The notes below the pieces were generated by a model. It saw only the letters and a program-made list of their open reading frames with translations, had not been told where the DNA came from and made no database searches. This document shows, piece by piece, positions 17,120 to 40,956 of a DNA stretch of 64,000 nt. Source of the stretch: Vulcanimicrobiota bacterium (GTDB lineage: Bacteria; Vulcanimicrobiota; Xenobia; Xenobiales; JADMJV01). The first letter of the stretch is position 1; every line of letters begins with the position of its first letter. The DNA is taken from contig JBFWNU010000005.1 of NCBI GenBank assembly GCA_050250895.1, positions 224,001-288,000 on the forward strand. Direction: 5' to 3'. Both the position numbers and the translations under genes were made by a program.

Positions 17120-17506
17120 ATGCCGAACTCCATGGATGTTCGCCTGGCCGTAGAGGCGCATCAGCTATTCACCTATCCCGACGTGCTGGTCGTGTGCGGC
17201 TCGCCCCGGCTCTTCGAGGGGCGCAACGACACCCTGGTCGACGCCACGCTGATCGTAGAGGTGCTCTCCCCCTCGACCGAGTCCTACGATCGAGACCAGA
17301 AGTTCCGTTTTTACCGCGCCCTGCCTTCGCTCGAAGAGTATGTCACCGTGGCCCAGGCTTCGGTGTTGGTCGAGCAGCACCAACGCCAGTCCGACAGCAC
17401 CTGGCTGCTCCGAGAACATCACTCGCTCAGCCAGAGGCTTGCCCTCCGGTCGCTGGGGGTCGAGATCGGCCTCGAGGGAATCTATCAGAACATCGAGGGG
17501 CTGTGA
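17120..17506 (+). pseudogene. N-terminally deleted Uma2 family endonuclease (copy A)
   Basis: Identical protein to the 27042..27614 product from DVRLAVE onward, but lacks the first ~67 residues. Confidence 0.8.
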
Positions 17507-17510
17507 CCGG
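17134..17510 (+). repeat. 377-bp direct repeat, left copy
   Basis: Matches 27242..27618; only 3 differences seen by eye, all synonymous. Confidence 0.93.
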
Positions 17511-18323
17511 GCCGCCAATCTGGCCATTCGAGGGGTGCTGGGGTTGCAGCGGCCCGTGCTGGTGGGTCGGCTGGGTGGGTTGGAAGGTGCCACCCTGGCC
17601 TACTATCTGCGGCATCGGCCGCGCCGCCCCTATCCGGAATGGTTGCGGGAGCGAATGCACTACAGCGCAGGTCTGTTCTCCAACGACGACCAGAGCATGG
17701 ATGTTTACTCCATGCTGACGGCCGCGGCCCTACGCCAGGCTGACTTGTTAGCAGTCTGGTGGGCGCCCGGCGAAGCTTCGGCCCTGCGGGGTTGCCTGGC
17801 CGATGGTGTGCCGCTGGTGAATCTGGCCAACCTGCAGCCCTTTCGTCACCCGGAGCCCTGGAGTCAGTTGCTGGCGGGTAAGAAAGTGGTGGTGGTGCAT
17901 CCGTTCGAGGCCTCCATACGGCAGAACTACGCTCGTCGCCACCTGCTTTTTGACGACCCGGCCGTCTTGCCCGGCTTCGAGCTCGAGGTGGTCAAGGCGG
18001 TGCAGGGAGTGACCGGCATCGAGACGGGCTTTGCTGATTGGTTTGCGGCCTTTGAGTGGATGAAGGCGCAGTTGAGCGGGCTCGACTACGAGGTGGCTCT
18101 GGTGGGGTGCGGAGCCTACGGCCTCCCGCTAGCGGCCTGGATTAAGGGGCAGGGCCGCCAGGCCATCCATCTGGGCGGAGTCACCCAGTTGCTTTTCGGT
18201 ATTCGAGGCAGGCGCTGGGACCGGCGGCTGCCGGCGGGACTCTGCCTGCAAAACTGGACCCGACCCCTGCCCGAAGAGACTCCTCCGGATTTTATGGGCA
18301 TGGAGGACGGTTGCTACTGGTAG
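17511..18323 (+). CDS. polysaccharide-locus protein (GT-D-fold-like), 5' end unclear or truncated
   Basis: GKKVVVVHPF, VALVGCGAYGLPLA..IK..G..AIHLGG.TQLLFGIRG.RWD and EDGCYW are typical of this glycan-cluster family. There is no proper start between the Uma2 repeat and the first conserved helix. Confidence 0.7.
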   Translation, partial: AANLAIRGVLGLQRPVLVGRLGGLEGATLAYYLRHRPRRPYPEWLRERMHYSAGLFSNDDQSMDVYSMLTAAALRQADLLAVWWAPGEASALRGCLADGVPLVNLANLQPFRHPEPWSQLLAGKKVVVVHPFEASIRQNYARRHLLFDDPAVLPGFELEVVKAVQGVTGIETGFADWFAAFEWMKAQLSGLDYEVALVGCGAYGLPLAAWIKGQGRQAIHLGGVTQLLFGIRGRRWDRRLPAGLCLQNWTRPLPEETPPDFMGMEDGCYW

Positions 18324-19038
18324 GTTTGCCGTAGTAGCGCTGGCGCACTCGAAGGTCTTCTTGCAGGCGGACGCTCTGTCGACTCAGCTCGAGCCCCTCG
18401 GGGTTTTCATAGTAGATTCCGATGGGTTCCTCGAAATGATGCAGCCGATAGCGTTCGGCGACCCGCAGCCAAAATTCCCAATCGCCCGAGACCTGAAAGC
18501 TCTCGTCGAACAGGCCCAAGCGATCGTGCAGGCTGCGCCGCCACATCGGGTTGGGGCCGCACAGGCACTGCAAGAGCAGGGCCTGGTGCTGGTAGGCCCT
18601 GCGTCGAACCCGCTGTAGGCGGCCGGCCGCCAGGGCGGTGGGCCAGTCGAGAACGTCCTCGGGGGTGACCGCCCGCCAGTTGTCGGGATAAACCAGGGCC
18701 ACCTCGGGAAGACTCTCCAAGCAGCAGACCAGGCGAGACAATCCGTCAGTCTGCATACGGTCATCGGTGTTGGCGTTGGTCAGAAACTCGCCCCGGGCGA
18801 TTTCGATGGCCCGATTCCAGGCTCCATAGACGGTCTGGTGGGGGGTTTCCAACAAGCGGATATTCGGGTGGCGACACTGGTAGTCAGCGGTGATTTCGGC
18901 CTCTCGCTGGGGCGAGCCGCTGACCACCACCACGATTTCGAGAGCCTGGCCAAGATCCTGGGCCAGGAGGTTGTCGAGCCTGGTGGCCAGCCAGGCCTCG
19001 GACCGATAGCAAGAGACCAGGGCCGAGACTTTGATCAA
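18292..19038 (-). CDS. glycosyltransferase family 2
   Basis: VSALVSCY, AWNRAI..ARGEF..NANTDD, FDESF..SGDWEFWLR motifs; TTG start coupled to the kinase stop. Confidence 0.9.
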   Translation of the reverse strand: MIKVSALVSCYRSEAWLATRLDNLLAQDLGQALEIVVVVSGSPQREAEITADYQCRHPNIRLLETPHQTVYGAWNRAIEIARGEFLTNANTDDRMQTDGLSRLVCCLESLPEVALVYPDNWRAVTPEDVLDWPTALAAGRLQRVRRRAYQHQALLLQCLCGPNPMWRRSLHDRLGLFDESFQVSGDWEFWLRVAERYRLHHFEEPIGIYYENPEGLELSRQSVRLQEDLRVRQRYYGKPTSSNRPPCP

Positions 19039-20006
19039 GCCAAACGTTCCAACAGGGTCCGGGCTTGCTCGCCCCGGTCAAGGTCGTAGCGGAGCCCCCA
19101 GCTCTGGGCCTGGGCGACCAGGTTGGTCAACAGCGAAAAGACGAAGCGGCTGGCCTGATCGAGCTCGGGTTGCGGCGGGATCTTGCGAAATAGCAGCATC
19201 GACTCGCGCAGCAACTCGTCGAGGGTCTCGCTGGTGGGGCGAGGCGCGAGCCCGGCGGGGCCGTCTTCGGGCAGCAGCCTCACCAGGTGAGCCACCTCGA
19301 CTGCCTGCCTGGGTCGGGGCAGGTCCAGCGGCAATTTTCCGTAAAAGTCGGGGCCGTCCCGAAGATGGCGGCCACACCAGGGAAGGAGCCCCAAGGCGTG
19401 CCGGGTGATCAAGGGCACCTGCAACGAGGCCACCCCCATCGGCTTGTCCCCGTCGAGAAAGAAGATAGGACTGTCGTCGGCCAGAAGCTGCCAGCCGGCT
19501 TCGACCATGCGCAAGGCCGTGGTCGTTTTTCCGATTCCCCCCGGGCCATATAACAATACCCCCCGGCCGTTCTTTGCCACCAGGGCGCCGTGGAGCGCTC
19601 GAAGTCCGGTCAGAGGAAAGACAAATCCCCGCAACACCGAGCGGAAGAAGGAGCTAAAGAAGTCCTCCGGAGAGTCGAGATAGCCTCGGCCCAGGCTGGC
19701 CCGGACGGTTGCGAGGGCGAAGTCTACCTCGATGAAGTGTTGACGGTCGCCGTCGATACGAGAGCGAAAGCGCGGGCGTTCGTAATAGCACGGTCCGCTC
19801 CCCAGGTTGTGTTCGGTCAAGAGGCCGCAGGCCTTGCCGACGCCAACAGGCCATTCGGCCAACTGCATCGTCCATTCCCGCCCGCCGCTATGGCCGTAGC
19901 CGTGAGGCAGCCGGGCCTCTAGCCACCGGAGCAGGCGGGGGCTCTGGCTGCGGATAGTCAGGCTCAGGCGAGGCAACTCGAGGCGCACCGCCTCTAGAGT
20001 CTTCAT
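19035..20006 (-). CDS. HprK-related P-loop kinase
   Basis: LHGALV..NGRGVLLYGPGGIGKTT (Walker A) and LLADD motifs of the HPr kinase/PEPCK-like fold. Confidence 0.85.
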   Translation of the reverse strand: MKTLEAVRLELPRLSLTIRSQSPRLLRWLEARLPHGYGHSGGREWTMQLAEWPVGVGKACGLLTEHNLGSGPCYYERPRFRSRIDGDRQHFIEVDFALATVRASLGRGYLDSPEDFFSSFFRSVLRGFVFPLTGLRALHGALVAKNGRGVLLYGPGGIGKTTTALRMVEAGWQLLADDSPIFFLDGDKPMGVASLQVPLITRHALGLLPWCGRHLRDGPDFYGKLPLDLPRPRQAVEVAHLVRLLPEDGPAGLAPRPTSETLDELLRESMLLFRKIPPQPELDQASRFVFSLLTNLVAQAQSWGLRYDLDRGEQARTLLERLA

Positions 20007-20043
20007 GCCAGGAGTTTAGCCTGCCGGCAAGTAACCCCCTTCC

Positions 20044-20385
20044 ATGAGTGATCGATTTCTCTGGCGGATCGTCAACGGCGAGGCTCTGGTGGTCGACCTG
20101 AGCAACGGCGACTACTATTCCCTAAATCCCACCGGGACCGAGATTCTCCGGCGCATGACCGAGGGCGAAGGGGCCGACCAAGTGGCTGCCTATCTCGAGG
20201 ACCGATTTGGCCGGGCCGTAGGCGAAGAGGTGGCTGACTTCTTTCGCCAGCTGCAGCACGAGCAGTTGGATGGGCTGGCGGGCGATTCGACCCAGGCCCT
20301 CGAGCTGGCCCAATACGCTCCCCCCGTGCTGCGCAAGTACAGCCAGCTGGACTCGTTGGCCGCTTATTCTCCAGACAAGCTCTGA
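20044..20385 (+). CDS. PqqD-family RiPP recognition element (RRE) with C-terminal lasso-leader-like tail
   Basis: RIVNGEALVVDL.NGDYYSLNPTG.EI...VA.YL...F...VADFFRQL is the canonical PqqD/RRE pattern; the tail is YAPPVLRKYSQLDSLAAYSPDKL. Confidence 0.88.
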   Translation: MSDRFLWRIVNGEALVVDLSNGDYYSLNPTGTEILRRMTEGEGADQVAAYLEDRFGRAVGEEVADFFRQLQHEQLDGLAGDSTQALELAQYAPPVLRKYSQLDSLAAYSPDKL

Positions 20386-21395
20386 AGAAACCCTTCCTTC
20401 ACCAGTTCACTCACGAAGCGCTCGAGCTCGTGTTGCAGCCGAGCCGGTTCGAGGCCCAGTCTGGCTCGCAGCTGCTCGAAAGCATCGTCGCCACTGCTGG
20501 TGAGGCAACGCCACATGAGCGCTCCCTGGCGGCCGACTTCCAACCGCCGCTGCCGGGTGGCCAGCCAGAGCGTGTCGGCCTGACTATACCAGCAGGCCAG
20601 ATCGTCGGCCGGTTTGAGGTCGGTCCGGGGTAAGGGAGGGCGCTTCAACGGCTGCCAGACCGCCACCCGGGGGCCGCTCCACCGGTCCCAAAAGGCGCCT
20701 AGCCGATAAGCGAGCGCGTAGGGGTCGAAGCCGCCACCGCCCACCCCGAAGCCGAACCTGCGGCCCACTCGGGCCGCGCCTCGTCCGTAGCGAAAGAAGC
20801 GGGCCAGCATGCCCACTCGGCCGCGCCGATCAAGATGAATGACTGGATCCTGATCGGTCAGGGCCAGAGGCCACCCGGCCAGTAAAGCCCGCCAGCACAG
20901 TTCGACATCCTCGCAGGCCGGCAAGCTTTCGTCAAAGCCCCTCAGTTCGTCGAGCACCTGCCGGCGAAAGAGGGCGTTGCCGGTCTTTAGCCAGGCAAAG
21001 GGGCTACGCAGCCAGCTGAGCTCGTCGGTCGAGGGCGGGCTCGCACCCAGGTAACGCCACTCGATGGGACCACCCACGGCTCCCGCCTGGCTCGACTCCA
21101 GACGCGCCAACAGGCCTCCCGGCCATCCGCGTGCGACTTGACAATGGGCGTCAAGAAAGGCCACCAGAGGCGAGCGGCCGGCGGCGATACCCAGGTTGCG
21201 GGCCCGTCCGACCGACCCATGGCCGGCTAGCACCTGAGCTCCATGCCGGCGGGCCAGGGCGGCCGTGGCGTCAGACGAGCCGTTGTCGACCACCACCGGA
21301 CGCAATAGCCTGGCCATGCTGGTGCCGGCCAGGCTCTCGAGGCAGGCACCGATATCGCGCTCCTCGTTGCGGGCCGGGATGATGACGTCGATCAA
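20364..21395 (-). CDS. glycosyltransferase family 2 with C-terminal PqqD/RRE-like domain
   Basis: VIIPARNE, VVDNGS.D, ARN.G, FLDAH, GFDESL..CEDVELCWR motifs. Residues ~260-338 read QGALMWRCL...LRARLG...LQHELERFVSELVKEGFL. Confidence 0.85.
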   Translation of the reverse strand: MIDVIIPARNEERDIGACLESLAGTSMARLLRPVVVDNGSSDATAALARRHGAQVLAGHGSVGRARNLGIAAGRSPLVAFLDAHCQVARGWPGGLLARLESSQAGAVGGPIEWRYLGASPPSTDELSWLRSPFAWLKTGNALFRRQVLDELRGFDESLPACEDVELCWRALLAGWPLALTDQDPVIHLDRRGRVGMLARFFRYGRGAARVGRRFGFGVGGGGFDPYALAYRLGAFWDRWSGPRVAVWQPLKRPPLPRTDLKPADDLACWYSQADTLWLATRQRRLEVGRQGALMWRCLTSSGDDAFEQLRARLGLEPARLQHELERFVSELVKEGFLQSLSGE

Positions 21396-22795
21396 GAGAT
21401 GGCCACCTGCAGTTCGTCGAACAGTTCTTCACGCCATTGGTCGAGCTGTCCTGGCCCTAGCTGCTCAGGGGGCCGGTCGGGTTGGATGGCCTTGAGGTCC
21501 AGACCCTGGGGGTAGCCGGGTCGCGGTCCGAGGTAGTGGTCGCGCGTGGCCAGCAAACACAGGTCCCACAAGCCGGCCTTGAGGCCTTCCCACTGGAGGG
21601 TGCTGACGCTTCCCCTTCGAGCGGGATAGGTGGTCATGTGCTGGCGCCGCCGCGACCAGCCACGTTCGAAGGCCTCGAAGTCGTTGTAGGGAGAGCCCGG
21701 GTAGCGCGGTCGGTGTTGATAGCAATAGGGAGAGATTCCGCTGGCCCCGCTCTTGTAAAGACCAAAGCCGGCCAGCACTCGGTGCGTCATCGCCTGCTCC
21801 GGGTAGGTTTGCCAATAGAAGTAGGTGTTTTGCGGTCGCAGCTGAGGAAAAGCCTCGAGCATCTCCATCGGAGCGGCGCCGCCATCGAGGCACAGACTGA
21901 CGATGTCGGGACCCCCGCCACTGAAGGTCTGCCAGGATACGGCCGAGGCCATGGTGGGCCAGTGCGGATAGAGCCTGCGGGCCAGGGTCAGATTGCGATG
22001 GTGGACCTCCCAGGTGTTCCCTCCGGCGTCGACTTCGTCGCTGACATAGAGAACCGGCTGCATGGCGTGAAAGTCGAGCTTGGCCAGCCAGCGGGGAAAT
22101 GGCTGCAGCAACACGGCCCGGCCGCAAAAGCCGCACTCGCTGGCCAGGTCGAGCACCTTCTGGGCCAGCCGCTGACTGCGCTCTCTGAGGCTGAAGCTCG
22201 TAAAGCCCGCCGTTCGAATGTCGCGCAGTTGCCAGCGCAACTCGGCTTCGTCGACATAGTGTTGGCTGCGACGGGGATCCAGGGTGGCCCGCAGCCAGAG
22301 CATTCGGTCTTGAGCGGGCTCGACCGGACGCACACCCAGGACCTCGACTTCGATGGGCAGGCAGAATTCGCGGCCACTCGCCCGCGCCACCAGTTGGGTT
22401 TGGTAGACCCCCGCCGGTTGGTCGGGCGGCACCCGCAGGCTCAGCCACAGTCGCTTGGGGAGCCGACCCAGCCGGGTCACGGCCGGTCCGGCCAGGCGCA
22501 GGTCGGGGGGCTGATAGTAGTAGCGCCACCCTTTGCGCAGGTAGCCATCCTCGATGGCGTCCTGGTCGCACTTGAGCAGCTTCTCGGGCACGGGCTTGAG
22601 GCGTTCCTGAAAGAAGCCGTCGCCGGGCTTGGGGGTGTCCTCGACGACGAAGGCTTCTCCGTGCAAGCCACGTTGGGGTGGGTATTCGACCACCAGCGTG
22701 CTATCGGGCTGCCCGCTCGCCCACAGTTCAAAGCCCAACTCCTGGCCCGGAAGCGCTCGCAGGCTGCGCCGGCTGGGGTCGAAGGTGAGAGTCAC
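21392..22795 (-). CDS. glycoside hydrolase family 123 / DUF4091-like protein
   Basis: LWLSLRVPPDQPAGVY...LPIEVEVL, YVSDE and C-terminal STLQWEGLKAG..DL motif; no signal peptide. Confidence 0.55.
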   Translation of the reverse strand: MTLTFDPSRRSLRALPGQELGFELWASGQPDSTLVVEYPPQRGLHGEAFVVEDTPKPGDGFFQERLKPVPEKLLKCDQDAIEDGYLRKGWRYYYQPPDLRLAGPAVTRLGRLPKRLWLSLRVPPDQPAGVYQTQLVARASGREFCLPIEVEVLGVRPVEPAQDRMLWLRATLDPRRSQHYVDEAELRWQLRDIRTAGFTSFSLRERSQRLAQKVLDLASECGFCGRAVLLQPFPRWLAKLDFHAMQPVLYVSDEVDAGGNTWEVHHRNLTLARRLYPHWPTMASAVSWQTFSGGGPDIVSLCLDGGAAPMEMLEAFPQLRPQNTYFYWQTYPEQAMTHRVLAGFGLYKSGASGISPYCYQHRPRYPGSPYNDFEAFERGWSRRRQHMTTYPARRGSVSTLQWEGLKAGLWDLCLLATRDHYLGPRPGYPQGLDLKAIQPDRPPEQLGPGQLDQWREELFDELQVAIS

Positions 22796-24039
22796 GAGAG
22801 CTTGGCCTGGAGCCTCTGACGGCTTTCGGGAAAGGTGAGCAGCACCTGGCAGAGATCGTATTGGGCCTTGAACACCGCCTGGCAGGCGCCCGGGCAGGCG
22901 GCCAGGGTGGCCGCCTCGTCGCGAAGCTGGCTCAACCGCACCGGGTCGAGGCCCACTTCAAGCTGCTGCCGCAAAGCTCGCTCGATCCGGTTGGCCGTTC
23001 GCTCCACCTGGGGCGGAGTGAAATGCCCGCCCTCAACCAGCCTGGCAGCCAGATCCTCGAGCCTGGCCTGGTCCACGGCGGGTTGAACCTCGAGTCTTTC
23101 GAGGACGGCCTGGAGGCGACCAGCCACCGTGTCCCAATCAGGCAGGCAGCCCACCGTCTCCAGTCCCCTGGCTCTCAGGCGCTGGGCCAACCGGGGTTGA
23201 GCTTGCAGGCGGCGCAGGCCTTCGGCCAATTCGGTCGGCGAGCCGGGCTCGACCAGCAGCAGGTTGTGCTCATCATGCCCGTATTCCTCGACCCCGCCGT
23301 TGCGGCTACAGAGGACCGGGACACCGCAGGCCATGGCCTCCAGCGGCGGCAGTCCCAGGCTTTCGTAGCGGCTCGACGAGCAGAGCACATCGCAGCCTGC
23401 GATGATGGAGCCCAATTGCTGGCGCGGCGGGTTGTGATGGTGCTCAACCTGAAAAGGCACTTCAGGCGGGTTCGGATTGCGCGAGACCATGACCAGCACG
23501 TAAGCGAAGTCGAGCGTTTCGAGCGCTTTGACCACCGCCGCGAAGTCTTTGACCGGCAACCTGTCGTCGCCGATCCAGAGAATTCGAAATGCCCCCTTTC
23601 GAGTTCGTCGGCGGGGTTGGAAATGCTGCCTGTCCAGGGCCAGTTGCAGATAGATCGACGGCCTGCCGAGTTGGGCCAGCAGCCGGGCCAGCGGGCGGGA
23701 AGTAGCGATGAGGGTGAAGGGCAGGTCGAGCAGTTCTTGGTAGATGGGCCGATTGGGTCCGGTCTGGAAGGGCTCGTAGGATTGGCATAAGACGGCCACC
23801 GGAGCCCTGCTTCGGGTTAGCACCCAGGGCAGCAAATTCAAGTGGGACAGCAAAATCCGCTGGCCCGAGAACTTCTGCGGAAAGTCCCTCGCCTGGGCGA
23901 AGGGAACCCCCAGGTCGAACCAATCCGGCTTGGGGCCAAAAGAGACGACGTGGGCCCCGGGCAACCGATTGGCAAGCTCGAGCAGCACCCGCGTGCCGCC
24001 TCCCACTGCGGTCGAAGCCATGAGCACTTGCGTCCTCAT
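22792..24039 (-). CDS. glycosyltransferase family 4 with C-terminal helical extension
   Basis: GGGTRV, SSRYESLGLPPLEAMACGVPV; ATG 24039 overlaps the sulfotransferase stop. Confidence 0.9.
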   Translation of the reverse strand: MRTQVLMASTAVGGGTRVLLELANRLPGAHVVSFGPKPDWFDLGVPFAQARDFPQKFSGQRILLSHLNLLPWVLTRSRAPVAVLCQSYEPFQTGPNRPIYQELLDLPFTLIATSRPLARLLAQLGRPSIYLQLALDRQHFQPRRRTRKGAFRILWIGDDRLPVKDFAAVVKALETLDFAYVLVMVSRNPNPPEVPFQVEHHHNPPRQQLGSIIAGCDVLCSSSRYESLGLPPLEAMACGVPVLCSRNGGVEEYGHDEHNLLLVEPGSPTELAEGLRRLQAQPRLAQRLRARGLETVGCLPDWDTVAGRLQAVLERLEVQPAVDQARLEDLAARLVEGGHFTPPQVERTANRIERALRQQLEVGLDPVRLSQLRDEAATLAACPGACQAVFKAQYDLCQVLLTFPESRQRLQAKLS

Positions 24040-24653
24040 CGGGTCAACATCTGCCGATAAGCCTGGTCCCAATGGATGTGCTCGGCTTGCCACCCGGGCC
24101 CGATGGAGTAGCGGTCGAGCGGACGGGGACGCTCCTGGGCGATGGCCTGGCGAACTCGGGTCTGATCGACCGACCCGGCCCCGAGCCACTCGATGACCCT
24201 GCTCAGAGTGGCCTCTGGGTCGGCGAGCATGGATTCGTAGCTGACCACGAGACCGGCGCGAGGCAACCATTTGTGGCAAAAGGCCAGATGGTAGGCCAGG
24301 CCGCGCCTGGCGAAGGTGTCCCAATCCTCGGCCTCGAGTCGGGGCAGCCGTCCCTCTTCAAAGAGCTGGTAGTAGGAACGAAGGGCCGGTAGGGGAGAGC
24401 GCACCTGAACCAGGCAGGGCAAGTCGGTGGCCAGACTCAGGTCGAGATCGTGGTGCTTCTGAAAGTTGGTCTCGGGCAGGCTGCACGGCACTTGATGGCA
24501 GTGGCCATAATAGCTACAGTAGACGAATGCACGATTGGGCTCGGGATGGGTCGAGACCGGGCCTGGTCCGTTGAAATAATCCCACAACAGGCGGACCAGC
24601 AGGTGGTGGCCACTGCGGGGAAAGCTAACGCAGATAGCCCTGGTCAGTTCCAA
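24036..24653 (-). CDS. sulfotransferase-family protein
   Basis: SFPRSGHHLL (5'-PSB loop), KHHD, VRSP..ALRSYY (3'-PB) and SYESMLADP motifs; TTG 24653 with AGGAG RBS. Confidence 0.75.
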   Translation of the reverse strand: MELTRAICVSFPRSGHHLLVRLLWDYFNGPGPVSTHPEPNRAFVYCSYYGHCHQVPCSLPETNFQKHHDLDLSLATDLPCLVQVRSPLPALRSYYQLFEEGRLPRLEAEDWDTFARRGLAYHLAFCHKWLPRAGLVVSYESMLADPEATLSRVIEWLGAGSVDQTRVRQAIAQERPRPLDRYSIGPGWQAEHIHWDQAYRQMLTR

Positions 24654-25936
24654 AGGCTCGGCTCCTGGGACCAGGTCAGCAGCACCCCGGCCAGGTCGAA
24701 ACTGGCCCGCGCCGCGCCGTAGAACTCGGCCGTGGGGCATTCGAGCAAGGCTGCCAGCCGGTGACGAACATCCTCGAGTTGGCGGCGCTCTGGCTGGCCA
24801 AGAACTCCGCCCGAGCGACACTGGGCGATCACTTCGCGTGCCTGCTCGCAAACGCGATAGGTCTCGATGGGAGTGAATACTCCCTGCTCCACCAGTTCTT
24901 TGGCTAGCCGCTCGAGTTCGGCCTGGTCCGGCTGCCAGGGCCGGGCGTCGGCCAGGACCTGCTCGAACGCCCGCAGGGTTGCCGGCCACTCGAAGCGCCC
25001 TTCGAGGTCGCGCCGTGCTTGCCGGCTCAGGCGCTCCCCGAGCCCCTCCTCGGTCAAGACCTGCTCTAGAGCACGGGCCATGGCGGCGCGATCTCCGGCT
25101 TCCACCAACAGCATGTTCTGGCCGGCGCGCCCGTAGTCGTCGACCCCCAGGTTGCGGGTCGAGACCACCGGCAGCCCGCTGGCCATGGCTTGCAGGGTCG
25201 CCAGATCGTGCCCCTCATACCACGAGCTGCAGAGATAGGCGTGGCAGCTGGCAAAGGCCTCCTCTAGCTGGTCGGGGTCGGGCTTGTAGAGGACCTGCCA
25301 GCCAAACTGATGGCCCTCGAGGTGGTCGCGTGGGGACGTCTCGGGGCTGAGCAAGACCAGTTCGAAGTCGAATCGCCTGGCCAGTTCGTCGAGGGCGGCA
25401 AAGCCGTCGCTCATGCCTTTGTAGGGAGCCAGCGGTGCCCCGCTCATCAAGATGCGCAACGGCCCTGTCGGCCGGGACCGATAGGCGAGCTTCTCGATGC
25501 CCACCGGAACGTAGTGGCTGGGTTGTCCTAGCAGCCCCTGCACCGAGCGAGAGACGGCCACCAGATTCAGCGGCAACGCCTCGATGGCCCCAAACACGGG
25601 ACAGGGCCGGCGTAGCTCCTCGAGGGTCTGGCCGTAGTAAAAGCTCTCGTAGCCCTGGCAAAAGAAGATCAGTTTGGGGCTGAATCGGCCCACGCTTGGC
25701 ACCAGGTGAGCATTGGAGACCACCACCACCTCGGGTTGGCGTGCCTGGATCAGCCCGGGCAGGTCGTCACTCTGAACAAATGGAGCCTGGAGCGAATACC
25801 AGTCAGGCCGGCTGCCCCACGAGGCCACCTCGACTCGCCGGCCGCTGGCCAGCAGCCGGTCGGCCAGACCAAATAGCAGGCGGGTGCAGTCTCCCATGAC
25901 AGTTCGGGTCAGGCAGAAGAGAATCTCAGCTTTCAC
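24644..25936 (-). CDS. glycosyltransferase family 4 with C-terminal helical extension
   Basis: FCQGYE, YKG and [21 protein letters not shown] motifs; paralogue of 22792..24039. Confidence 0.88.
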
Positions 25937-26855
25937 GTCGCATCGCTCCCTGGCGGTACCAGGCGATGGTGCGGGCCAGTCCTTCGTCGAAGCTGGTGGT
26001 GGCCCGCCAGCCGAAGGCCTCTTCGGCGAGCCGACTGTCGACCAGTCGCCTGGGCTGGCCGTCGGGCCGGCTCCTATCGAACTCGATGGGCCCCTCGAAT
26101 CCCGTCAGACGGGCGATTTTTGTAGCCAGATCGGCCACCTTGATCTCCTGGCCTGAACCCAGGTTGACCGGCTCTGACTCGGAGTAGGCCTCGGCAGCCC
26201 GCACAATCGCCTCGGCGGCGTCGTCGACGTAGAGAAACTCGCGGGTGGCCCGGCCGCTGCCCCAGACGGTCAGACCTTGTCCGCTGAGGCACTTGCCAAT
26301 CAGGGCTGGAATGACGTGGCTGGTGTCCGGGTCGATGTGATCGCCCGGCCCGTAGAGGTTGACCGGCATCAAGAAGATCGAGTTGAACCCATATTGCTGG
26401 CGATAGGCCTGACCGGCTACCAGCATCATCTTTTTGGCCAGGGCATAGGGAGCGTTGGTCTCTTCGGGATAGCCATTCCACAGGTCGTTCTCGTTGAAGG
26501 GCACGGGGGTGTGCTTGGGATAGCAGCAGACGGTCCCCACCGAGACGAACTTTTCGACCCCGGCCTGCCAGCAAGCGTGAAAAAAGGGAACTCCCATCAT
26601 CAGGTTGTCATAGAAGAACTCGGCCGGGCGGGCCTGATTGGCTCCAATACCTCCCACCCGGGCGGCCAGATGGATGACCACCTCCGGCTCGGCCTCGGCC
26701 AGGAGCCTTTGGCCGGCGCCCGCCTGGCACAGGTCGCGCTCAGACCCCACGGCCGTCACCCTGGCCCCGGCCCGCTCGAGTCGGGGCACGACGTAGCCAC
26801 CGAGAAAACCCGTGCCACCGGTAACCAGCACCGCTTTGCCTGTCCAAAACGACAT
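25926..26855 (-). CDS. fcl: GDP-L-fucose synthase
   Basis: [59 protein letters not shown] and PDGQPRR motifs. Confidence 0.95.
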
Positions 26856-27041
26856 GTGACGCTGCTTCCCGCGCCCCGCTCCTGATCCCTGGGCGCTGGC
26901 GAGGAGTTGCCGTCAATTTGGCCGGGAGGACGTGACCGTGATTGGCGGGTCTTCGGGCGGTAGGTAGCAGACATGCTCGGGTCGGGCCATAGTCTGACCA
27001 TAGCCGCAGGCGGGCATCCGCGCCATGCCGAACTCAGCTAC

Positions 27042-27614
27042 GTGCTACCGCTGCCTCATCGACGCTTTTCGGCCGAGGAATATTTGCGCCTGGAGGCCGA
27101 CTCCGCCTCCAGAAGCGAGTTCCACGAGGGCCTGATTTATGCCATGACAGGCGGGTCGCTCGACCACAATCGCATCGTATGCAATCTGGTCCATCAGCTT
27201 CGTCTGGGTCTCGACGGGTCGGACTGCGAGGTCTTCAGCTCGGATGTTCGCCTGGCGGTAGAGGCGCATCAGCTATTCACCTATCCCGACGTGCTGGTCG
27301 TGTGCGGCTCCCCCCGGCTCTTCGAGGGGCGCAACGACACCCTGGTCGACGCCACGCTGATCGTAGAGGTGCTCTCCCCCTCGACCGAGTCCTACGATCG
27401 AGACCAGAAGTTCCGTTTTTACCGCGCCCTGCCTTCGCTCGAAGAGTATGTCACCGTGGCCCAGGCTTCGGTGTTGGTCGAGCAGCACCAACGCCAGTCC
27501 GACAGCACCTGGCTGCTCCGAGAGCATCACTCGCTCAGCCAGAGGCTTGCCCTCCGGTCGCTGGGGGTCGAGATCGGCCTCGAGGGAATCTATCAGAACA
27601 TCGAGGGGCTGTGA
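27042..27614 (+). CDS. Uma2 family endonuclease (DUF820), intact copy B
   Basis: FSAEEYL..E...RSEF.EG.IYAM.GGS..H, YPDV.VVC, IVEVLSPST..YDR..KF..Y motifs; start GTG 27042. Confidence 0.92.
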   Translation: MLPLPHRRFSAEEYLRLEADSASRSEFHEGLIYAMTGGSLDHNRIVCNLVHQLRLGLDGSDCEVFSSDVRLAVEAHQLFTYPDVLVVCGSPRLFEGRNDTLVDATLIVEVLSPSTESYDRDQKFRFYRALPSLEEYVTVAQASVLVEQHQRQSDSTWLLREHHSLSQRLALRSLGVEIGLEGIYQNIEGL

Positions 27615-27618
27615 CCGG
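27242..27618 (+). repeat. 377-bp direct repeat, right copy
   Basis: Matches 17134..17510. Confidence 0.93.
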
Positions 27619-27715
27619 CCGCCTAGCAGCAGGCAGCCAACCCTGGCCGCAGGGTATCGGGCAAAACCCGCGAACGGGAACAAAAGCACCTCTTTGTGCT
27701 GTCTAACCCAAGAGC

Positions 27716-28345
27716 ATGGCATCGCTTCCTTTAACAGAGACTCTGGGAATTCGCCTCGGTTTAACCAGCGGCGAGTTTCGGGCTGTTCGGGAAGAGCCGC
27801 GCAGTTTGATTGCCCGGGCGTGTAGTGGTGAGGCCGGCGCCATCGAAGAGCTGGTGGAATACTATCAAGACACCATCTACTCGATCGCGATGACCTTCAC
27901 GCGCAACCCCCACCGGGCCGAAGACCTGGCTCAAGATGCCTGGATCCGCATCATCCGCGGCCTGTCGACCTTCAAGCAAGATTCGCGCTTCACCACCTGG
28001 GTGTATCGCATCACCATGAATACTTTCTTGAATTCGACTCGCAAGCGCGAACTCAACCTCGACGCCGATGAGCGGGTGCTTGAAGAGCCCCGTGGCGACG
28101 AGGGACGAGGGCAGGCCATGCTCGACACCAGCCTGGCCGTGCAAGAGGCCGTGCGCGAACTGCCCGACGAGTTTCGGGCTGTGGTTGCGCTGCGCTTTGC
28201 CGCCGATCTCTCTTATAAAGAGATCGCCCAGGTCCTGGACGTGCCGCTCGGAACGGTTCAGTCTCGCCTCAAACGCGGGCTGACCCGGCTAGCCGAGCGA
28301 TTGGGTAGCGACAGTGCCGAGGGGGTGCCCGTTGTCGCTGACTAG
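27716..28345 (+). CDS. ECF RNA polymerase sigma factor
   Basis: Region 2 AEDLAQDAWIR...FTTWVYRI..N and region 4 LSYKEIAQVLDVPLGTVQSRL.RG; true start may be further downstream. Confidence 0.92.
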   Translation: MASLPLTETLGIRLGLTSGEFRAVREEPRSLIARACSGEAGAIEELVEYYQDTIYSIAMTFTRNPHRAEDLAQDAWIRIIRGLSTFKQDSRFTTWVYRITMNTFLNSTRKRELNLDADERVLEEPRGDEGRGQAMLDTSLAVQEAVRELPDEFRAVVALRFAADLSYKEIAQVLDVPLGTVQSRLKRGLTRLAERLGSDSAEGVPVVAD

Positions 28346-28895
28346 CACTTATAAGGTTTTGCTGGTGGTGGGCTTCTTGATGCTCGACTTCGTGGGCTTT
28401 TACCTCACCGAGTATCGTGACAAGTGGGGCGAGTTGTCCGAGCTTGAAGAGCGGCTTGAACATCGCCATCTGGTGCTCGAGCAAAAGCGTGCCAAAGAAT
28501 ATGCCCTGGCCGACAGCGCCGACGAGATCGCCAAGCTCGAGGCCCATTTGAGCAACCTGCTGACCCAGCACCCTGAAGCCGAGGCGCTGGGTCTGTATAT
28601 CGACGGGCTTGAACAGATCGTGCTCTCTTCGTATGAGAACGAAGGCCTTCCCCTGGCTATCGAGTCGGTCACGCCGTTGCCGGCCTCACCCCCCGAAGGC
28701 TATCGCACTCAAGACTTTCAGATGAATTTCCTCGGCCGATATGACGCCATAGAGGACTTTCTCTACCAGATGAACGGTCTGCAATCCGAGCAACTAGTGG
28801 CCATCAGCAGTCTGCATCTGTCGAGCACCGACGAAGGACCGCTGCGCATCACCATGCCGATGCGGGCCTATCTGGGCGAAGAGGAGCAACCATGA
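28332..28895 (+). CDS. PilO/GspM-like membrane protein
   Basis: N-terminal TM, coiled coil and FQMNFLGRYDAIEDFL..MN.L..LVAISSL ferredoxin-like motif. Confidence 0.65.
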   Translation: MSLTSTYKVLLVVGFLMLDFVGFYLTEYRDKWGELSELEERLEHRHLVLEQKRAKEYALADSADEIAKLEAHLSNLLTQHPEAEALGLYIDGLEQIVLSSYENEGLPLAIESVTPLPASPPEGYRTQDFQMNFLGRYDAIEDFLYQMNGLQSEQLVAISSLHLSSTDEGPLRITMPMRAYLGEEEQP

Positions 28896-37728: not shown

Positions 37729-40700
37729 CTAGCCGATGGCCAGGCGTCCGTCGGGTCGCTCTCTTAGCAGCCCGTTGGGTGATTTCTGCAGCTCCATCAT
37801 GCGCTCGCCGATCTGGTCGGGCCCGACCTTTCTCACCAGCGGGCTCTCGGAGATCTTCTTCTCCTGGGCCGAGATGACGCGAACCTCCATCATCTGGTCG
37901 AAGGGCAGCTCTTCTTCCCCCGAGACCTTGCCCCACTTGTCACCATAGGCGTTGCGTTTGGTGGTGCTCAGCAAGGCGGCGAAGGCGGCCAGCTGGTCGA
38001 CCTCAGAGGTCTTGAGCAGGCTGTCGAGCTTGGCCCGGATCTGGTCAAACAGCTTCTCGCGCAAAGGGTGGGTCTGAGACAGCTTGAGGATGACCATGTA
38101 GCGGTCGCCCAGGGGATGGGGACGCATCTGGAAGCCATCCCGCTCCATCCACAGATACTCGCCGGCGCGGAACTCGAGAATATCGAACATGCAGCCCAGT
38201 ACGTAGCATTCGTGGGCCTCTTCCAGAGCTACCCGCTCTTCCTTGGTAAGGATGGCGAGATCGGGAAACTTCTTGTCCTGGCATTCGATGTGAAGACACT
38301 CGCCTTCAGTGTAAAGTTTGAGGTACGAGTCGCGCAGATCCAGTACCCGCGAGACGTAGTTGATAGGAAAGCCACCGGCCTCTTGATAAAAGATGATTTC
38401 GCTGGTGTCCGGGATGGGATAGAAGCGCACGTCGCTCTTGATCTCGCGGGTCACGTACTGGCGGAACTTGTCGACATGCGAGGTGACCTCGGAGGCGTCG
38501 GCAGGGGTCATACCCGGCCCCGGCCCCGGCACGCCCACCATCGGATGAATTTGCTCGTCGGGCAAGCGGAAGGTGCCCAACACCCCGCTGCGGGTGGCCC
38601 AGAAGGCCGACCGCGAGATCATCTGGCGCAGGTGGTTGCCGCGGGTCTGCTCGTCCATAGTGGAAAACAGCACCTTCACCACGTGGAAATCGTTGCGGAT
38701 GGGCTCGAACACCTTGCGCGACTCGCCCAGCAGGGCCCGCGTCCACTCTTCGGTGCGACCGCCGGCGATGTCGCTCGACAACCCCGACACGGTGCGCTCG
38801 AGGCGCCTCAAGACCGAGTCAGAGACCTGCTTGAGTTTGTCGCCCTTGATATAGGCCGGATAGTAGCGCTTCTCGATATCGGTGGCCTCGTACAACACCA
38901 GGCTGTGCGGAGCGGAGTCTTTCTGGCTGAAGTAAGAAAACCCGCGCTTGAGTTCTTCGGCCATGCGATCGAGATCGCGAGTGAGTTGACCCAGCTGGTC
39001 GACCAGCCCGCCGCCCCGCCGGCCGTCGGGCCGCACACTGCCCTGGATGAAATCGATCAGGCGCTGGCACAGGCCTTTTCCCTCGTTATAGGCCCGCTCT
39101 TGCAGCAGGCAACGTAAAGAACCGGGAGCCCGGTTATCGCCCACCTGAGCCGATAGATAACGGTCGGTGAGGTAGTTGAGGATGGTGCCTTTGCGTCCGT
39201 CCCAGTTGGTGCGGGCCTGGTAGCGCCCCACTTCGGAAAGGCTGCGGGTGACCTCGGCGATGCGGCGCCGATACTTCTCTTGAATGTCGGTCGACTTCTT
39301 ATCGAAACTGGCCTGGATGGTCTTGAGCTGGGCGGCCGTCTCGTTGAGTACGGCCTGGGCGTATTCGATGCTGTGGCCTTTGCCGTCGACCAGCTCGAAG
39401 GCCGAGTCGCGCAAAGCCTTGCTGGCCCGGTCAAACAGCGCGTCTTGATTGGCTCGCATGGTACGAGGATAGTGGCCCCACTGCTCGGGCTCAGGACCGA
39501 GCTTTTCAGACCACAGGCGTTTCTCTTCGTCTTCGGACTTCTCGGCCAGAAAATCACGCAGAGGCTGGCGCTTCTGGCTGTGTTCGCCGCGGTTGACGGC
39601 CTGCAAGACACCGGCCTTCCATTGGGTCAACTCGCGCAACAAGCCGGCCGCTTTACCCTTGGCGGGGTCGGCCAGACCGCCGTCGTCGAGCAGGGCAAAC
39701 AGGATATCGTGACGCTTTTCGTCTTCGCTCAGTTTAACCCGGTCGAGAAAGTCCTCGCGCACGAAACGAGGCACATCGGCGGGGTTGAAGCTGCCAGCAG
39801 TGGTGCCGCCCCAGGTCTGTAGGATCTCGGAGGCCAGCTTGTAGGAGCAAGCGGTGATGATGCGGTCGTGGGGCACCACGATGGTCGACATGCCGAGCGA
39901 GCCGTAGCGCTGGATGAAGTGCTGCTTGAAGGTCGGATGCTCGTAGTCGTAGGTCTTGTTCATGTACTGGCGCAGGTTGACCCGAGCGCTGCGCTTGTGG
40001 TCGGCAAACTCGCCGTGGGAGAAATCTTTGAAGATGGCATCAGCCAGCAGTTCGAAGACCAGTTCTTGACTGCCCGGCTGACCGCCGGTGACCTGGCCGG
40101 CCGCGTTTTGATTGTCGAACACGTAGGTGTAGTCAAAGGGCGGAATGGGGATGCGGCTGATCTTGTCACGCTCCCACTCGACCGGAAAAATGTTGGCGCC
40201 GCCATAGCTGAAATAGTTCAGTTCCTTGAGCAGGGCATAGCTGTTGGCGCGCATCTTCTCGTTGGTGACGGCTCCGAAGTGATCGGGAAAGACCAGAAAC
40301 GACGAAGTGGTCAGGTTGCCCTCTTGAAAGACATCCTTGACCAGAAAGGCCATGTCCATCAGCATGCCCGAGCCGGTGCCGCCCGCGATCGAGCAGACGA
40401 TGTAGACATTGGTGGGCTGGTTGAACTCGACCTGGGCCAGCAGACCCAGCTCTTTGAGCAGGGGCGAACTCATCATGCGCTCGGCCGAGAGCGGGTCGCG
40501 AATCTTGCGGTTGGCCTCGACCACGGCTGCTCGAATGTCGCGATAGTGATGGAAGAAAGCCAGGCGACTGTAAGCACGGATCTGGCCGGCGCCTTCGTTC
40601 ATCTGGCCCAGGGCCGATAGCCCCGGATACCACCAGCGGTCGATGTGGGCGTAGTTGGGCTCTTTGAGGTTGTTGGTGATGACGGTGGTGTCGGCCACCG

Positions 40701-40956
40701 TGACCATCAACCGCTCGGTATCGGTCATGCGCACATACTCGCGCACTTCCTTGCCCAGAATGTGCTTCTCGCTGCGGTCGGTATCGAGCCACAGATAGCC
40801 CACAATCGGAAACTCGGCCAGGCTGCCGTACTTCTCGTAAAAGCGTTTGCGCACGCGCAAGACCACATCGCCACCGGTGCCGCCCAACCCGATGATCAGG
40901 GTGGGGCGGATGCGGACAAGATCGGCTCCTGCGCCGGGGGTATTCTGTTCGGCCAT
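37729..40956 (-). CDS. tubulin-like (Tubulin_2 family) GTPase domain protein with long helical C-terminus
   Basis: PTLIIGLGGTG, GAGQIR..SRLAF, SIAGGTGSG (tubulin signature) and ANSYALLKEL motifs. Confidence 0.88.
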   Translation of the reverse strand: MAEQNTPGAGADLVRIRPTLIIGLGGTGGDVVLRVRKRFYEKYGSLAEFPIVGYLWLDTDRSEKHILGKEVREYVRMTDTERLMVTVADTTVITNNLKEPNYAHIDRWWYPGLSALGQMNEGAGQIRAYSRLAFFHHYRDIRAAVVEANRKIRDPLSAERMMSSPLLKELGLLAQVEFNQPTNVYIVCSIAGGTGSGMLMDMAFLVKDVFQEGNLTTSSFLVFPDHFGAVTNEKMRANSYALLKELNYFSYGGANIFPVEWERDKISRIPIPPFDYTYVFDNQNAAGQVTGGQPGSQELVFELLADAIFKDFSHGEFADHKRSARVNLRQYMNKTYDYEHPTFKQHFIQRYGSLGMSTIVVPHDRIITACSYKLASEILQTWGGTTAGSFNPADVPRFVREDFLDRVKLSEDEKRHDILFALLDDGGLADPAKGKAAGLLRELTQWKAGVLQAVNRGEHSQKRQPLRDFLAEKSEDEEKRLWSEKLGPEPEQWGHYPRTMRANQDALFDRASKALRDSAFELVDGKGHSIEYAQAVLNETAAQLKTIQASFDKKSTDIQEKYRRRIAEVTRSLSEVGRYQARTNWDGRKGTILNYLTDRYLSAQVGDNRAPGSLRCLLQERAYNEGKGLCQRLIDFIQGSVRPDGRRGGGLVDQLGQLTRDLDRMAEELKRGFSYFSQKDSAPHSLVLYEATDIEKRYYPAYIKGDKLKQVSDSVLRRLERTVSGLSSDIAGGRTEEWTRALLGESRKVFEPIRNDFHVVKVLFSTMDEQTRGNHLRQMISRSAFWATRSGVLGTFRLPDEQIHPMVGVPGPGPGMTPADASEVTSHVDKFRQYVTREIKSDVRFYPIPDTSEIIFYQEAGGFPINYVSRVLDLRDSYLKLYTEGECLHIECQDKKFPDLAILTKEERVALEEAHECYVLGCMFDILEFRAGEYLWMERDGFQMRPHPLGDRYMVILKLSQTHPLREKLFDQIRAKLDSLLKTSEVDQLAAFAALLSTTKRNAYGDKWGKVSGEEELPFDQMMEVRVISAQEKKISESPLVRKVGPDQIGERMMELQKSPNGLLRERPDGRLAIG

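Follow-up and report, generated by a model that had tools for sequence, protein, structure and literature searches.

The window analysed here is a 64,000-nucleotide stretch of a Vulcanimicrobiota genome (assembly GCA_050250895.1, contig JBFWNU010000005.1, positions 224,001 to 288,000 of the forward strand), and all positions given below are those of the window unless a locus is named. Between 17340 and 26855 it holds a cluster of genes in which a PqqD-family protein, a RiPP recognition element (RRE; RiPP, ribosomally synthesised and post-translationally modified peptide) fused to a short peptide, is encoded beside an HprK-like kinase, family 2 and family 4 glycosyltransferases (GT2, GT4), one of which bears an RRE of its own, and a protein resembling glycoside hydrolases of family 123 (GH123). 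We conclude that the cluster belongs to a real, uncharacterised RiPP-type family whose RRE- and HprK-dependent peptide modification is distinct from the linear polyphosphorylated peptide (LPP), lasso peptide and HPr-rel-A systems as these are defined; the conclusion is built on observed gene content, family-level domains, conservation of the cassette, the peptide with its fusion, and predicted folds. The genes had been named in a sequence-only reading of the window, and all of them are present, each with a family-level match in Pfam or NCBIfam or, for the 467-aa GH123-like protein, with a match to GH123 structures through a profile of its family.

The fusion gene (20044-20385, + strand) is a single open reading frame (ORF) of 113 aa that scores 39 bits against PqqD and is made up of a lasso-B1-like RRE, a linker and a peptide module. 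In the AlphaFold2 model (mean pLDDT, the per-residue confidence, 84.3; pTM, the global confidence, 0.79; linker at lower confidence) the RRE domain, residues 1-74 (20044-20265, +), consists of three strands and three helices according to DSSP (E5-10, E13-18, E24-27, H29-39, H44-55, H60-72). Residues 91-100 have a pLDDT of 93 and include a strand at 96-99, the RRE sheet being the only sheet of the model, and the last 13 residues (101-113) fall to a pLDDT of ~50. The closest folds are TbiB1 and TfuB1, lasso B1 RREs in complex with leader peptides. A profile of the discrete RREs (A2), compared with known structures, likewise matched TbiB1 (E 2.3e-17), TfuB1 (1.8e-11) and 9x90 (1.2e-9), and only weakly LppB, the RRE of the LPP system (9x8z, E 4e-4), and PqqD itself; the NCBIfam lasso PqqD models are the best matches of the discrete RRE, yet remain under their cut-off. 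The peptide module, residues 91-113 (20314-20382, +), is the putative substrate part and reads as a YxxPxL motif followed by RKY-x-Q-L and AAYSPDKL, so that the YxxPxL tail described in the sequence-only reading is confirmed, beginning the last 23 residues of the protein. A word-indexed search with the fusion protein found one relative only. P0002, from another assembly, is likewise 113 aa long and 82% identical to the window protein, the tail being better conserved between the two than the linker; with three further RRE-peptide fusions of 117-124 aa (P0041, P0049, P0052) there are four fused relatives in total; the fusion is not an artefact of assembly, and these four independent cases speak against a frameshift artefact.

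Elsewhere the two parts are usually apart. The PqqD proteins of other loci are 82-92 aa long and end right after the third helix, and a separate ORF of 42-66 aa lies directly downstream in another frame; this arrangement was seen in 13 genome loci, 11 of them retrieved with a profile of the 467-aa protein family (A1) and two cyanobacterial (L036 and L037). As the tail of the window protein aligns with this module, which is a separate gene elsewhere, the window protein is an in-frame fusion of RRE and peptide, and the tail proposed earlier to be part of an RRE-precursor fusion turns out to be a conserved peptide module. The stand-alone peptides have a variable N-terminus, whereas their C-terminal 22-25 residues are conserved across phyla and end in the near-invariant P-(V/I)-Y-x-K-P-x-(L/I)-R-(R/K)-Y-D-Q-I-(D/E)-Q-V-(K/R)-P-Y-G-P-(S/T)-E, followed by 1-4 residues. 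In more general form the conserved part consists of a lasso-type YxxPxL sequence, then (R/K)(K/R)Y-x-Q-(I/L), and at its end Y-(G/S)-(P/V)-(S/D). Across 11 aligned sequences, the window tail included, Y, P, R, Y, Q, Y and P are invariant, and the conservation runs 15-17 residues past the RRE-binding motif to the C-terminus. Searched against 1.84 billion representative proteins, the peptide profile gave 35 matches at E<=1e-3, 8 of them at E<=1e-10; 33 were retrieved. Most of the matches are peptides 42-73 aa long that belong to two subtypes, type 1 with ...PYGPSE... and type 2 with ...QID(Y/H)V(T/A)(A/I)YG(V/I)D. Two of the matches (P0044, P0046) are doubtful, and one of 4299 aa, lacking an aligned stretch, looks spurious. 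NCBIfam held no family for any of eight peptides or tail pieces. A metagenome scan with the fused proteins yielded 74 loci, 17 of which carry a PqqD protein of the main family, and in all 17 a separate peptide ORF comes next. Judged from the alignments, a peptide end so well conserved across phyla is more in keeping with a conserved cellular role, for example as carrier, primer, cofactor or signal, than with an antibiotic.

The kinase gene (19035-20006, -) encodes 323 aa and reaches 37.1 bits against PF07475 (cut-off 33.3), a match that covers the P-loop part only. The protein aligns with the HprK/P structures 1jb1 and 1ko7 (E 1.4e-7) over the P-loop and the LLADD stretch, and 7 kinase orthologues show no change in the G-K-T residues of Walker A or in the DD pair; in PsmK, the kinase of the pseudomycoidin cluster, the double mutant D158A/D159A is described as inactive (PMC6993621, accessible text). 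A locus search with the kinase alone returned no related locus. On a metagenome contig of 3525 bases (L105), one long frame begins with an RRE and a YxxPxL tail and later includes a segment with an HprK-like P-loop, an apparent fusion of RRE, tail and kinase.

The second RRE of the cluster is attached to a glycosyltransferase. This GT2-RRE protein (20364-21395, -; 343 aa; PF00535, 67.5 bits) carries at about residues 262-343 (20367-20612, -) a domain that in the window copy stays below the PqqD cut-off (21.2 versus 23.4 bits), and PqqD is matched by 12 of 12 aligned family members with a best E of 1.3e-11; eleven orthologues align over the full length. Together with the 39 bits of the fusion RRE this means that both domains supposed to be RREs score as such. 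The best NCBIfam match of the protein is the MftF model TIGR03965, at 108.6 bits and thus well under the equivalog cut-off of 280.

Upstream of it in the same run lies the gene for the GH123-like protein (21392-22795, -; 467 aa), in which an N-terminal beta-sandwich precedes a (beta/alpha) barrel. The window protein has no Pfam or NCBIfam match of its own, and NCBIfam also gave none for two homologues out of two; about 15 relatives of 36-42% identity were found in a large protein collection. Profile A1 matched GH123 structures in the PDB (8k2j at E 1.1e-8; also 8k2f, 5l7v, 5l7r and 5fqe), and with the AlphaFold2 model (pLDDT 87, pTM 0.90) ranks 1-21 among the Foldseek matches listed are all GH123 (best E 2e-20, TM-score 0.69). 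An Asp-Glu pair, D253 and E254, shows no variation among 15 sequences and comes right after barrel strand 246-252, the place of the catalytic pair in GH123 and GH20 enzymes; its own catalytic role is putative. In GH123 enzymes the Asp-Glu pair serves a substrate-assisted mechanism. The window protein thus shares with the GH123 beta-N-acetylgalactosaminidases (8p4l, 8k2j, 5fqe) the two-domain fold over its whole length and the profile match, and differs from them in its 11-15% identity, the absent Pfam match and its place in a peptide-modification cassette; such an activity is a prediction.

The 467-aa family served as the entry point to related loci. Profile A1 retrieved 17 loci from a species-representative genome collection, and these were compared by tblastn with ten window proteins. 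In ten of them (L020, L024, L025, L026, L028, L029, L030, L031, L033, L034) the genes for a GT4, the HprK-like kinase, GT2-RRE, PqqD and the 467-aa protein stand next to one another. An eleventh cassette locus, L032, is divergent, and in L019, L021, L022, L023 and L027 the contig, 5.0-6.9 kb long, breaks off near the 467-aa gene. Two false leads were discarded, a weak partial match of 51 residues (L035) and an unrelated oxidoreductase (L039). The cyanobacterial loci L036 and L037, retrieved through the second peptide subtype with a narrower alignment (A6), carry the same set plus a second GT2, in the order PqqD, peptide, kinase, GT2, GT4, NTP_transf_5, GH123-like, GT2-RRE, GT4. The conserved cassette of GT4, kinase, GT2-RRE, RRE and GH123-like protein occurs in many bacterial phyla of soil and water and was found in 12 genome loci with labels from about seven phyla; the labels of the loci retrieved with A1 are Acidobacteriota (including Pyrinomonadaceae and Terriglobales), Gemmatimonadales, Abditibacteriota, Chthonomonadales, Acidimicrobiia, 'delta proteobacterium' and Obscuribacterales. 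The question raised by the sequence-only reading, whether the RRE and kinase genes travel with these glycosyltransferases, is therefore answered in the affirmative by those 12 loci. Among six related loci annotated with Pfam, five have an NTP_transf_5 gene (PF14907) and one an MsbA-like ABC transporter. A search of 60 genomes related to that of the window did not find the 467-aa protein in any of them; within its own lineage the cluster is therefore an accessory island of sporadic occurrence.

The remaining glycosyltransferases belong to this picture to different degrees. GT4a (22792-24039, -; 415 aa from the ATG at 24039; PF00534, 74.6 bits) has orthologues in the cassette loci, and GT4b (24644-25936, -; 430 aa; PF13692, 61.6 bits) shares 30-35% identity, over almost all of its length, with the GT4 encoded ahead of the kinase there. 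Past the Pfam GT4 domains each of the two GT4s has a C-terminal extension of about 100 aa, which matches no family and is conserved in the orthologues (tblastn alignments reach residues 421-430). GT2b (18292-19038, -; PF00535, 57.1 bits) is 40-41% identical to the GT2 placed after the kinase in L036 and L037, and more weakly similar in the divergent L032 (24%). Three further genes are accessory. The sulfotransferase (Sulfotransfer_3; 24036-24653, -; ~205 aa from the TTG at 24653; PF13469, 30.8 bits, cut-off 27) was found by tblastn in none of 21 genome loci. The Fcl-like epimerase/reductase of the short-chain dehydrogenase/reductase (SDR) family (25926-26855, -; 309 aa; PF01370, 199 bits) opens the minus-strand run and clearly belongs to the SDR epimerases; the score against the GDP-L-fucose synthase model NF047922 (279.5 bits) stays under the cut-off of 500, and tblastn gave matches of ~26% identity in three of the 21 loci. 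The GT-D-like gene (17340-18323, +; 327 aa from the ATG at 17340) reaches 17.9 bits against the Pfam GT-D-like family, whose cut-off is 27, and was matched in none of the 21 genome loci and in one metagenome locus (L111). Its protein family has 2877 homologues at E<=1e-3 in a word-indexed search, of about 310-325 aa, and many of the 120 homologues listed carry PF22882 and many are cyanobacterial; from this record we take the ORF to be a real gene. The earlier gene list, presented as one system, thus holds for the core, and the sulfotransferase, the Fcl-like protein, the second GT2 and the GT-D-like gene fall outside the conserved part.

The minus-strand run had been described as translationally coupled, and successive genes do overlap by 4-11 nt, consistent with such coupling, part of these overlaps depending on the start codons chosen (TTG 24653 for the sulfotransferase, ATG 24039 for GT4a). 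The start of GT2b and the stop of the kinase gene likewise overlap by 4 nt, and 37 bases separate the divergent starts of the kinase and PqqD genes. At their 3' ends the fusion gene and GT2-RRE overlap convergently by 22 nt (20364-20385), as do the GT-D-like gene and GT2b by 32 nt (18292-18323), and a transcript of the long minus-strand run would run antisense to the RRE-peptide gene. A scan for promoters and terminators produced nothing usable above shuffled expectation. The absence of lasso enzymes noted from the window sequence was borne out by a six-frame search of the 9.5-Mb genome: none of 12 matches to PF00733 (Asn_synthase, the cyclase) lies in the window or anywhere on its contig, and none of four matches to PF13471 (Transglut_core3, the lasso B2 protease) lies within the window. 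The same holds for radical SAM and YcaO enzymes, no such family appearing among the window ORFs scanned. Outside the cluster the window has 49 ORFs of at least 100 aa, of which 34 and a further 6 were scanned and the other 9 left out, and the scanned flanks contain no capsule or exopolysaccharide (EPS) export machinery. At the cluster border (26973-28895, +) are genes for a Uma2-family endonuclease, an ECF sigma factor and a PilO-like protein, and farther away (37729-40956, -) a 1075-aa protein has an N-terminal Tubulin_2 domain (PF13809, 220 bits) and is followed by a 371-aa ORF without a family.

The genome of the window encodes five HprK-like kinases, each near a PqqD gene. Two of the others lie in lasso-type clusters, on contig 9 (L014) and contig 1 (L016), which have an Asn_synthase cyclase, their own PqqD/RRE, an HprK-like kinase and a Sulfotransfer_1 gene; the one on contig 1 adjoins a YcaO gene and one for a ThcOx-like oxidase. 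The other two, on contigs 4 and 2, stand in clusters with GT2, GT4, NTP_transf_5 and ABC genes, and the PqqD proteins there (contig 4, L015:7863-8273, +; contig 2, L017:13007-13438, +) have C-terminal (F/Y)xxPxL tails. Such sister RRE-tail fusions account for 44 of the 74 metagenome loci (for example L050, L055 and L070); they are 135-150 aa long and end in ...DM..LL.LDPIH.VDE.GWP or ...YRDM.DLLALDPP, tails for which NCBIfam has no family. Fusion of an RRE to a YxxPxL tail is therefore common in the wider group and an exception in the main family. In a metagenome-assembled genome of Gemmatimonadales (L038, 9950-10360) a PqqD protein beside GT4-like genes has another tail (Y-E-P-P-x-I...F-G-E-L), and its sequence suggests that still further RRE-tail families exist.

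Among characterised systems, the LPP family of Bacillota, described in 2026 (PMC13381572, Popov et al., Nat Commun 2026; statements about it refer to the accessible part of that report), comes closest. There the leader carries YxxPxVLxHQxIxFETxxS, and LppK polyphosphorylates Ser3 of a linear peptide core that follows this YxxP leader (PMC13381572). LPPs are said to be restricted to Bacillota, and the accessible text calls their final product and role unknown (PMC13381572). Our cassette resembles this system in its discrete lasso-type RRE, its HprK-like kinase, its linear peptide with a YxxP motif and the lack of a lasso cyclase, and most of its relatives have an NTP_transf_5 gene comparable to LppN. 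The LPP motif and that of our peptide alignment (A3) look related: counted from the Pro, both have a hydrophobic residue at +2, His or Tyr at +5 and Ile at +8. The cassette differs from the accessible description of LPP in that it occurs outside Bacillota, adds the conserved GT2-RRE, two GT4s and the GH123-like enzyme, and is without the leader peptidase of SpI/SipW type (LppS) and a regular MsbA-like exporter; neither the ORFs of the window's cluster nor those of six related loci gave a match to a signal-peptidase family. The layout of the precursor is reversed, the conserved motif of the cassette peptide being C-terminal to a variable N-terminus, whereas LppA, as far as the accessible account goes, has an N-terminal leader and a long variable C-terminal core. 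The cassette RRE profile, moreover, matches the LppB structure at an E of 4e-4 as against 2e-17 for TbiB1. We accordingly do not count the cassette as LPP in the strict sense: RRE and kinase agree, and peptidase, NTP transferase/exporter and precursor layout do not. The novelty claimed in the sequence-only reading is thus upheld for the cassette family, which is distinct, and not for the principle, since an RRE, an HprK-like kinase and a YxxP leader acting independently of lasso formation were already published with LPP.

In paeninodin and pseudomycoidin a B1-type RRE binds a leader with a YxxPxL or WxxP motif. The cassette shares with these lasso systems the HprK-family kinase, whose target there is a Ser at or near the C-terminus, the B1-type RRE and a motif of YxxPxL type; it differs in that the window lacks cyclase and B2, the peptide core is too short, and the sugar enzymes are classical GT2 and GT4, one of them with an RRE. 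In lasso precursors a Thr stands at -2, and the core has the length that ring and tail require. The window protein has the YxxPxL motif, followed by 17 residues and without a Thr at the expected place, and with cyclase C, protease B2 and a suitable precursor all missing, we do not assign it to a lasso cluster. In pseudomycoidin PsmK phosphorylates the C-terminal Ser, and the NTP transferase PsmN is needed for placing a hexose on the phosphate (PMC6993621, accessible text). HPr-rel-A resembles the window in that a PqqD-family protein adjoins an HprK-related kinase, and differs in that the window pair lies far below the equivalog cut-offs (kinase TIGR04352, 32 versus 200 bits; PqqD TIGR04353, 22.5 versus 35 bits), so that we do not place it there; the kinase cut-off is also missed by the paralogous kinases of the same genome and by those of L030 and L036 (<=49.7 bits). 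Our search found no literature on the HPr-rel-A system. Fusions of an RRE with PF00535 glycosyltransferases have been listed as a candidate new type of RiPP enzyme (RRE-Finder, PMC7470986; Bregman et al. 2025, PMC12710340); in the accessible parts of these papers they are mining entries without a described peptide, kinase, cassette or function, and the supplements may show more. The cassette is not described in the titles and abstracts of the literature found on HprK-like kinases or in the accessible RRE and RiPP literature, the supplements of which may list related clusters.

Based on our data we propose that the cluster is probably a RiPP-type biosynthetic cluster of an uncharacterised, widespread family whose substrate is a small ribosomal peptide that becomes phosphorylated and glycosylated. 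Binding, every chemical step, the modified residue and the release or export of the product are what we infer, as follows. The lasso-B1-like RRE would bind the YxxPxL stretch as an added beta-strand and leave the flexible C-terminal end free, and since the peptide of the window protein is fused in frame to the RRE, recognition there would be intramolecular. The HprK-like kinase would phosphorylate a hydroxyl residue near the C-terminus of the peptide, GT2-RRE and the GT4s would attach sugars, either onto the peptide itself or onto its phosphate, with NTP_transf_5 joining in most relatives, and the GH123-like enzyme may trim or remodel a sugar of N-acetylhexosamine (HexNAc) type. In the genome of the window, the sulfotransferase, the Fcl-like protein, the second GT2 and the GT-D-like protein might contribute a lineage-specific decoration, such as sulfation or a deoxyhexose.

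Several observations weigh against this proposal, and some of them suit another one, namely that the tail or peptide is a pseudo-leader, sitting in the RRE groove as an autoinhibitory element or adaptor or recruiting the enzymes, with the true substrate encoded elsewhere. RRE-tail fusions are the normal state in the sister families, at the two further loci of the same genome as in the metagenomes, which is compatible with a tail that forms a built-in part of a chaperone and not a substrate. The AlphaFold2 model of the window protein docks the motif in cis, a model built on a four-sequence alignment. The candidate acceptor position varies, the Ser lying in YSPD in the window and in YGPSE in type 1, and in several type-2 peptides (...QIDHVAIYGVD) the conserved end behind the YxxP motif lacks both Ser and Thr; LppK, for comparison, refuses Thr or Tyr in place of its Ser (PMC13381572). 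Neither a protease nor a regular exporter belongs to the conserved set of the six annotated loci, and the window itself is without NTP_transf_5 (none of seven PF14907 matches of the genome lies inside) and has no ABC exporter among the cluster ORFs. A core as conserved across phyla as this one is also unusual for RiPPs of antibiotic type. For one cassette locus (L034) the RRE was modelled with its own peptide, giving a complex score of 0.49 against 0.10 for the best of three controls, with a contact agreement between runs of at least 92% and a partner pLDDT of at least 50. The score passes a mark that is reached by 116 of 157 solved complexes and by 2 of 215 mismatched pairs, and scores of 0.60 or less comprise only 18 of those 157 complexes together with both passing mismatches; the prediction weakly favours the pairing. 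As complexes of lasso B1 proteins with leaders have already been solved, the pass may reflect likeness rather than binding. Even so, we regard a pseudo-leader as rather unlikely: the module is usually a separate gene right after the RRE gene (13 genome and 17 metagenome loci), the classic position of a precursor, the stretch conserved beyond the RRE-binding motif is long, and the cassette holds no other conserved candidate for the substrate gene.

The number of glycosyltransferases, together with a sugar-nucleotide enzyme and a sulfotransferase, could also be expected of an ordinary cell-surface polysaccharide cluster (EPS, capsule or lipopolysaccharide) that merely happens to have PqqD and HprK-like genes beside it, and LPP and paeninodin clusters are often found inside capsular polysaccharide loci according to the accessible text of PMC13381572. 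We consider this very improbable, however, in view of the peptide, the two RREs and the kinase, which travel with the glycosyltransferases across phylum-level labels, of the glycosyltransferase that bears an RRE in all 12 members, and of the cluster ORFs and scanned flanks, among which no family of Wzx/Wzy, Wza/Wzc or priming-transferase type occurs. That the cluster is a tailoring island acting in trans on lasso peptides of its own genome is hardly credible either, despite the lasso-type clusters on contigs 9 and 1 and the closeness of the cassette RRE to lasso B1 proteins. The lasso clusters found, which the sequence-only reading had held out as a possible home of the cognate cyclase and precursor, carry their own RREs, and the two annotated ones also their own HprK-like kinases and sulfotransferases; they are therefore not missing partners and do not need this cluster. 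The cassette, for its part, has its own conserved peptide, too short past the motif for a lasso, and recurs in other genomes with the same peptide.

Within the proposal of a phosphorylated and glycosylated peptide, the conservation of the peptide end across phyla, as read from the alignments, points to a conserved cellular role and not to an arms-race antibiotic. It is possible, though doubtful, that the peptide is a conserved primer or carrier on which a glycan linked through a Tyr- or Ser-phosphate is begun at its C-terminus and then lengthened by the GT2 and GT4 enzymes, giving a glyco-phospho-peptide of housekeeping type. Such a primer would resemble, by analogy, glycogenin or a peptide-anchored counterpart of lipid-linked glycan assembly, and the product may be an envelope component, a storage compound, a signal or a cofactor. 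If so, the RRE-peptide fusions would be self-recognising primer proteins, a natural fusion of substrate and chaperone, and together with the sister families they would make up a class of RRE-guided peptide glycosylation systems, widespread among Gram-negative and cyanobacterial lineages, that has gone unnoticed until now.

Whatever the product, RRE-guided modification that depends on an HprK-like kinase would reach beyond lasso peptides and the LPPs of Bacillota into Acidobacteriota, Gemmatimonadota, Abditibacteriota, Armatimonadota, Actinomycetota, Cyanobacteriota and others. The GT2-RRE fusions, previously only entries of genome mining, gain a context and a candidate substrate, and the GH123-like enzyme is placed in a peptide pathway. 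As the conserved peptide and the minimal gene set are defined, the proposal is straightforward to test by co-expression and mass spectrometry, and the natural RRE-peptide fusions offer a ready model for leader recognition in cis, which has so far been mostly engineered.

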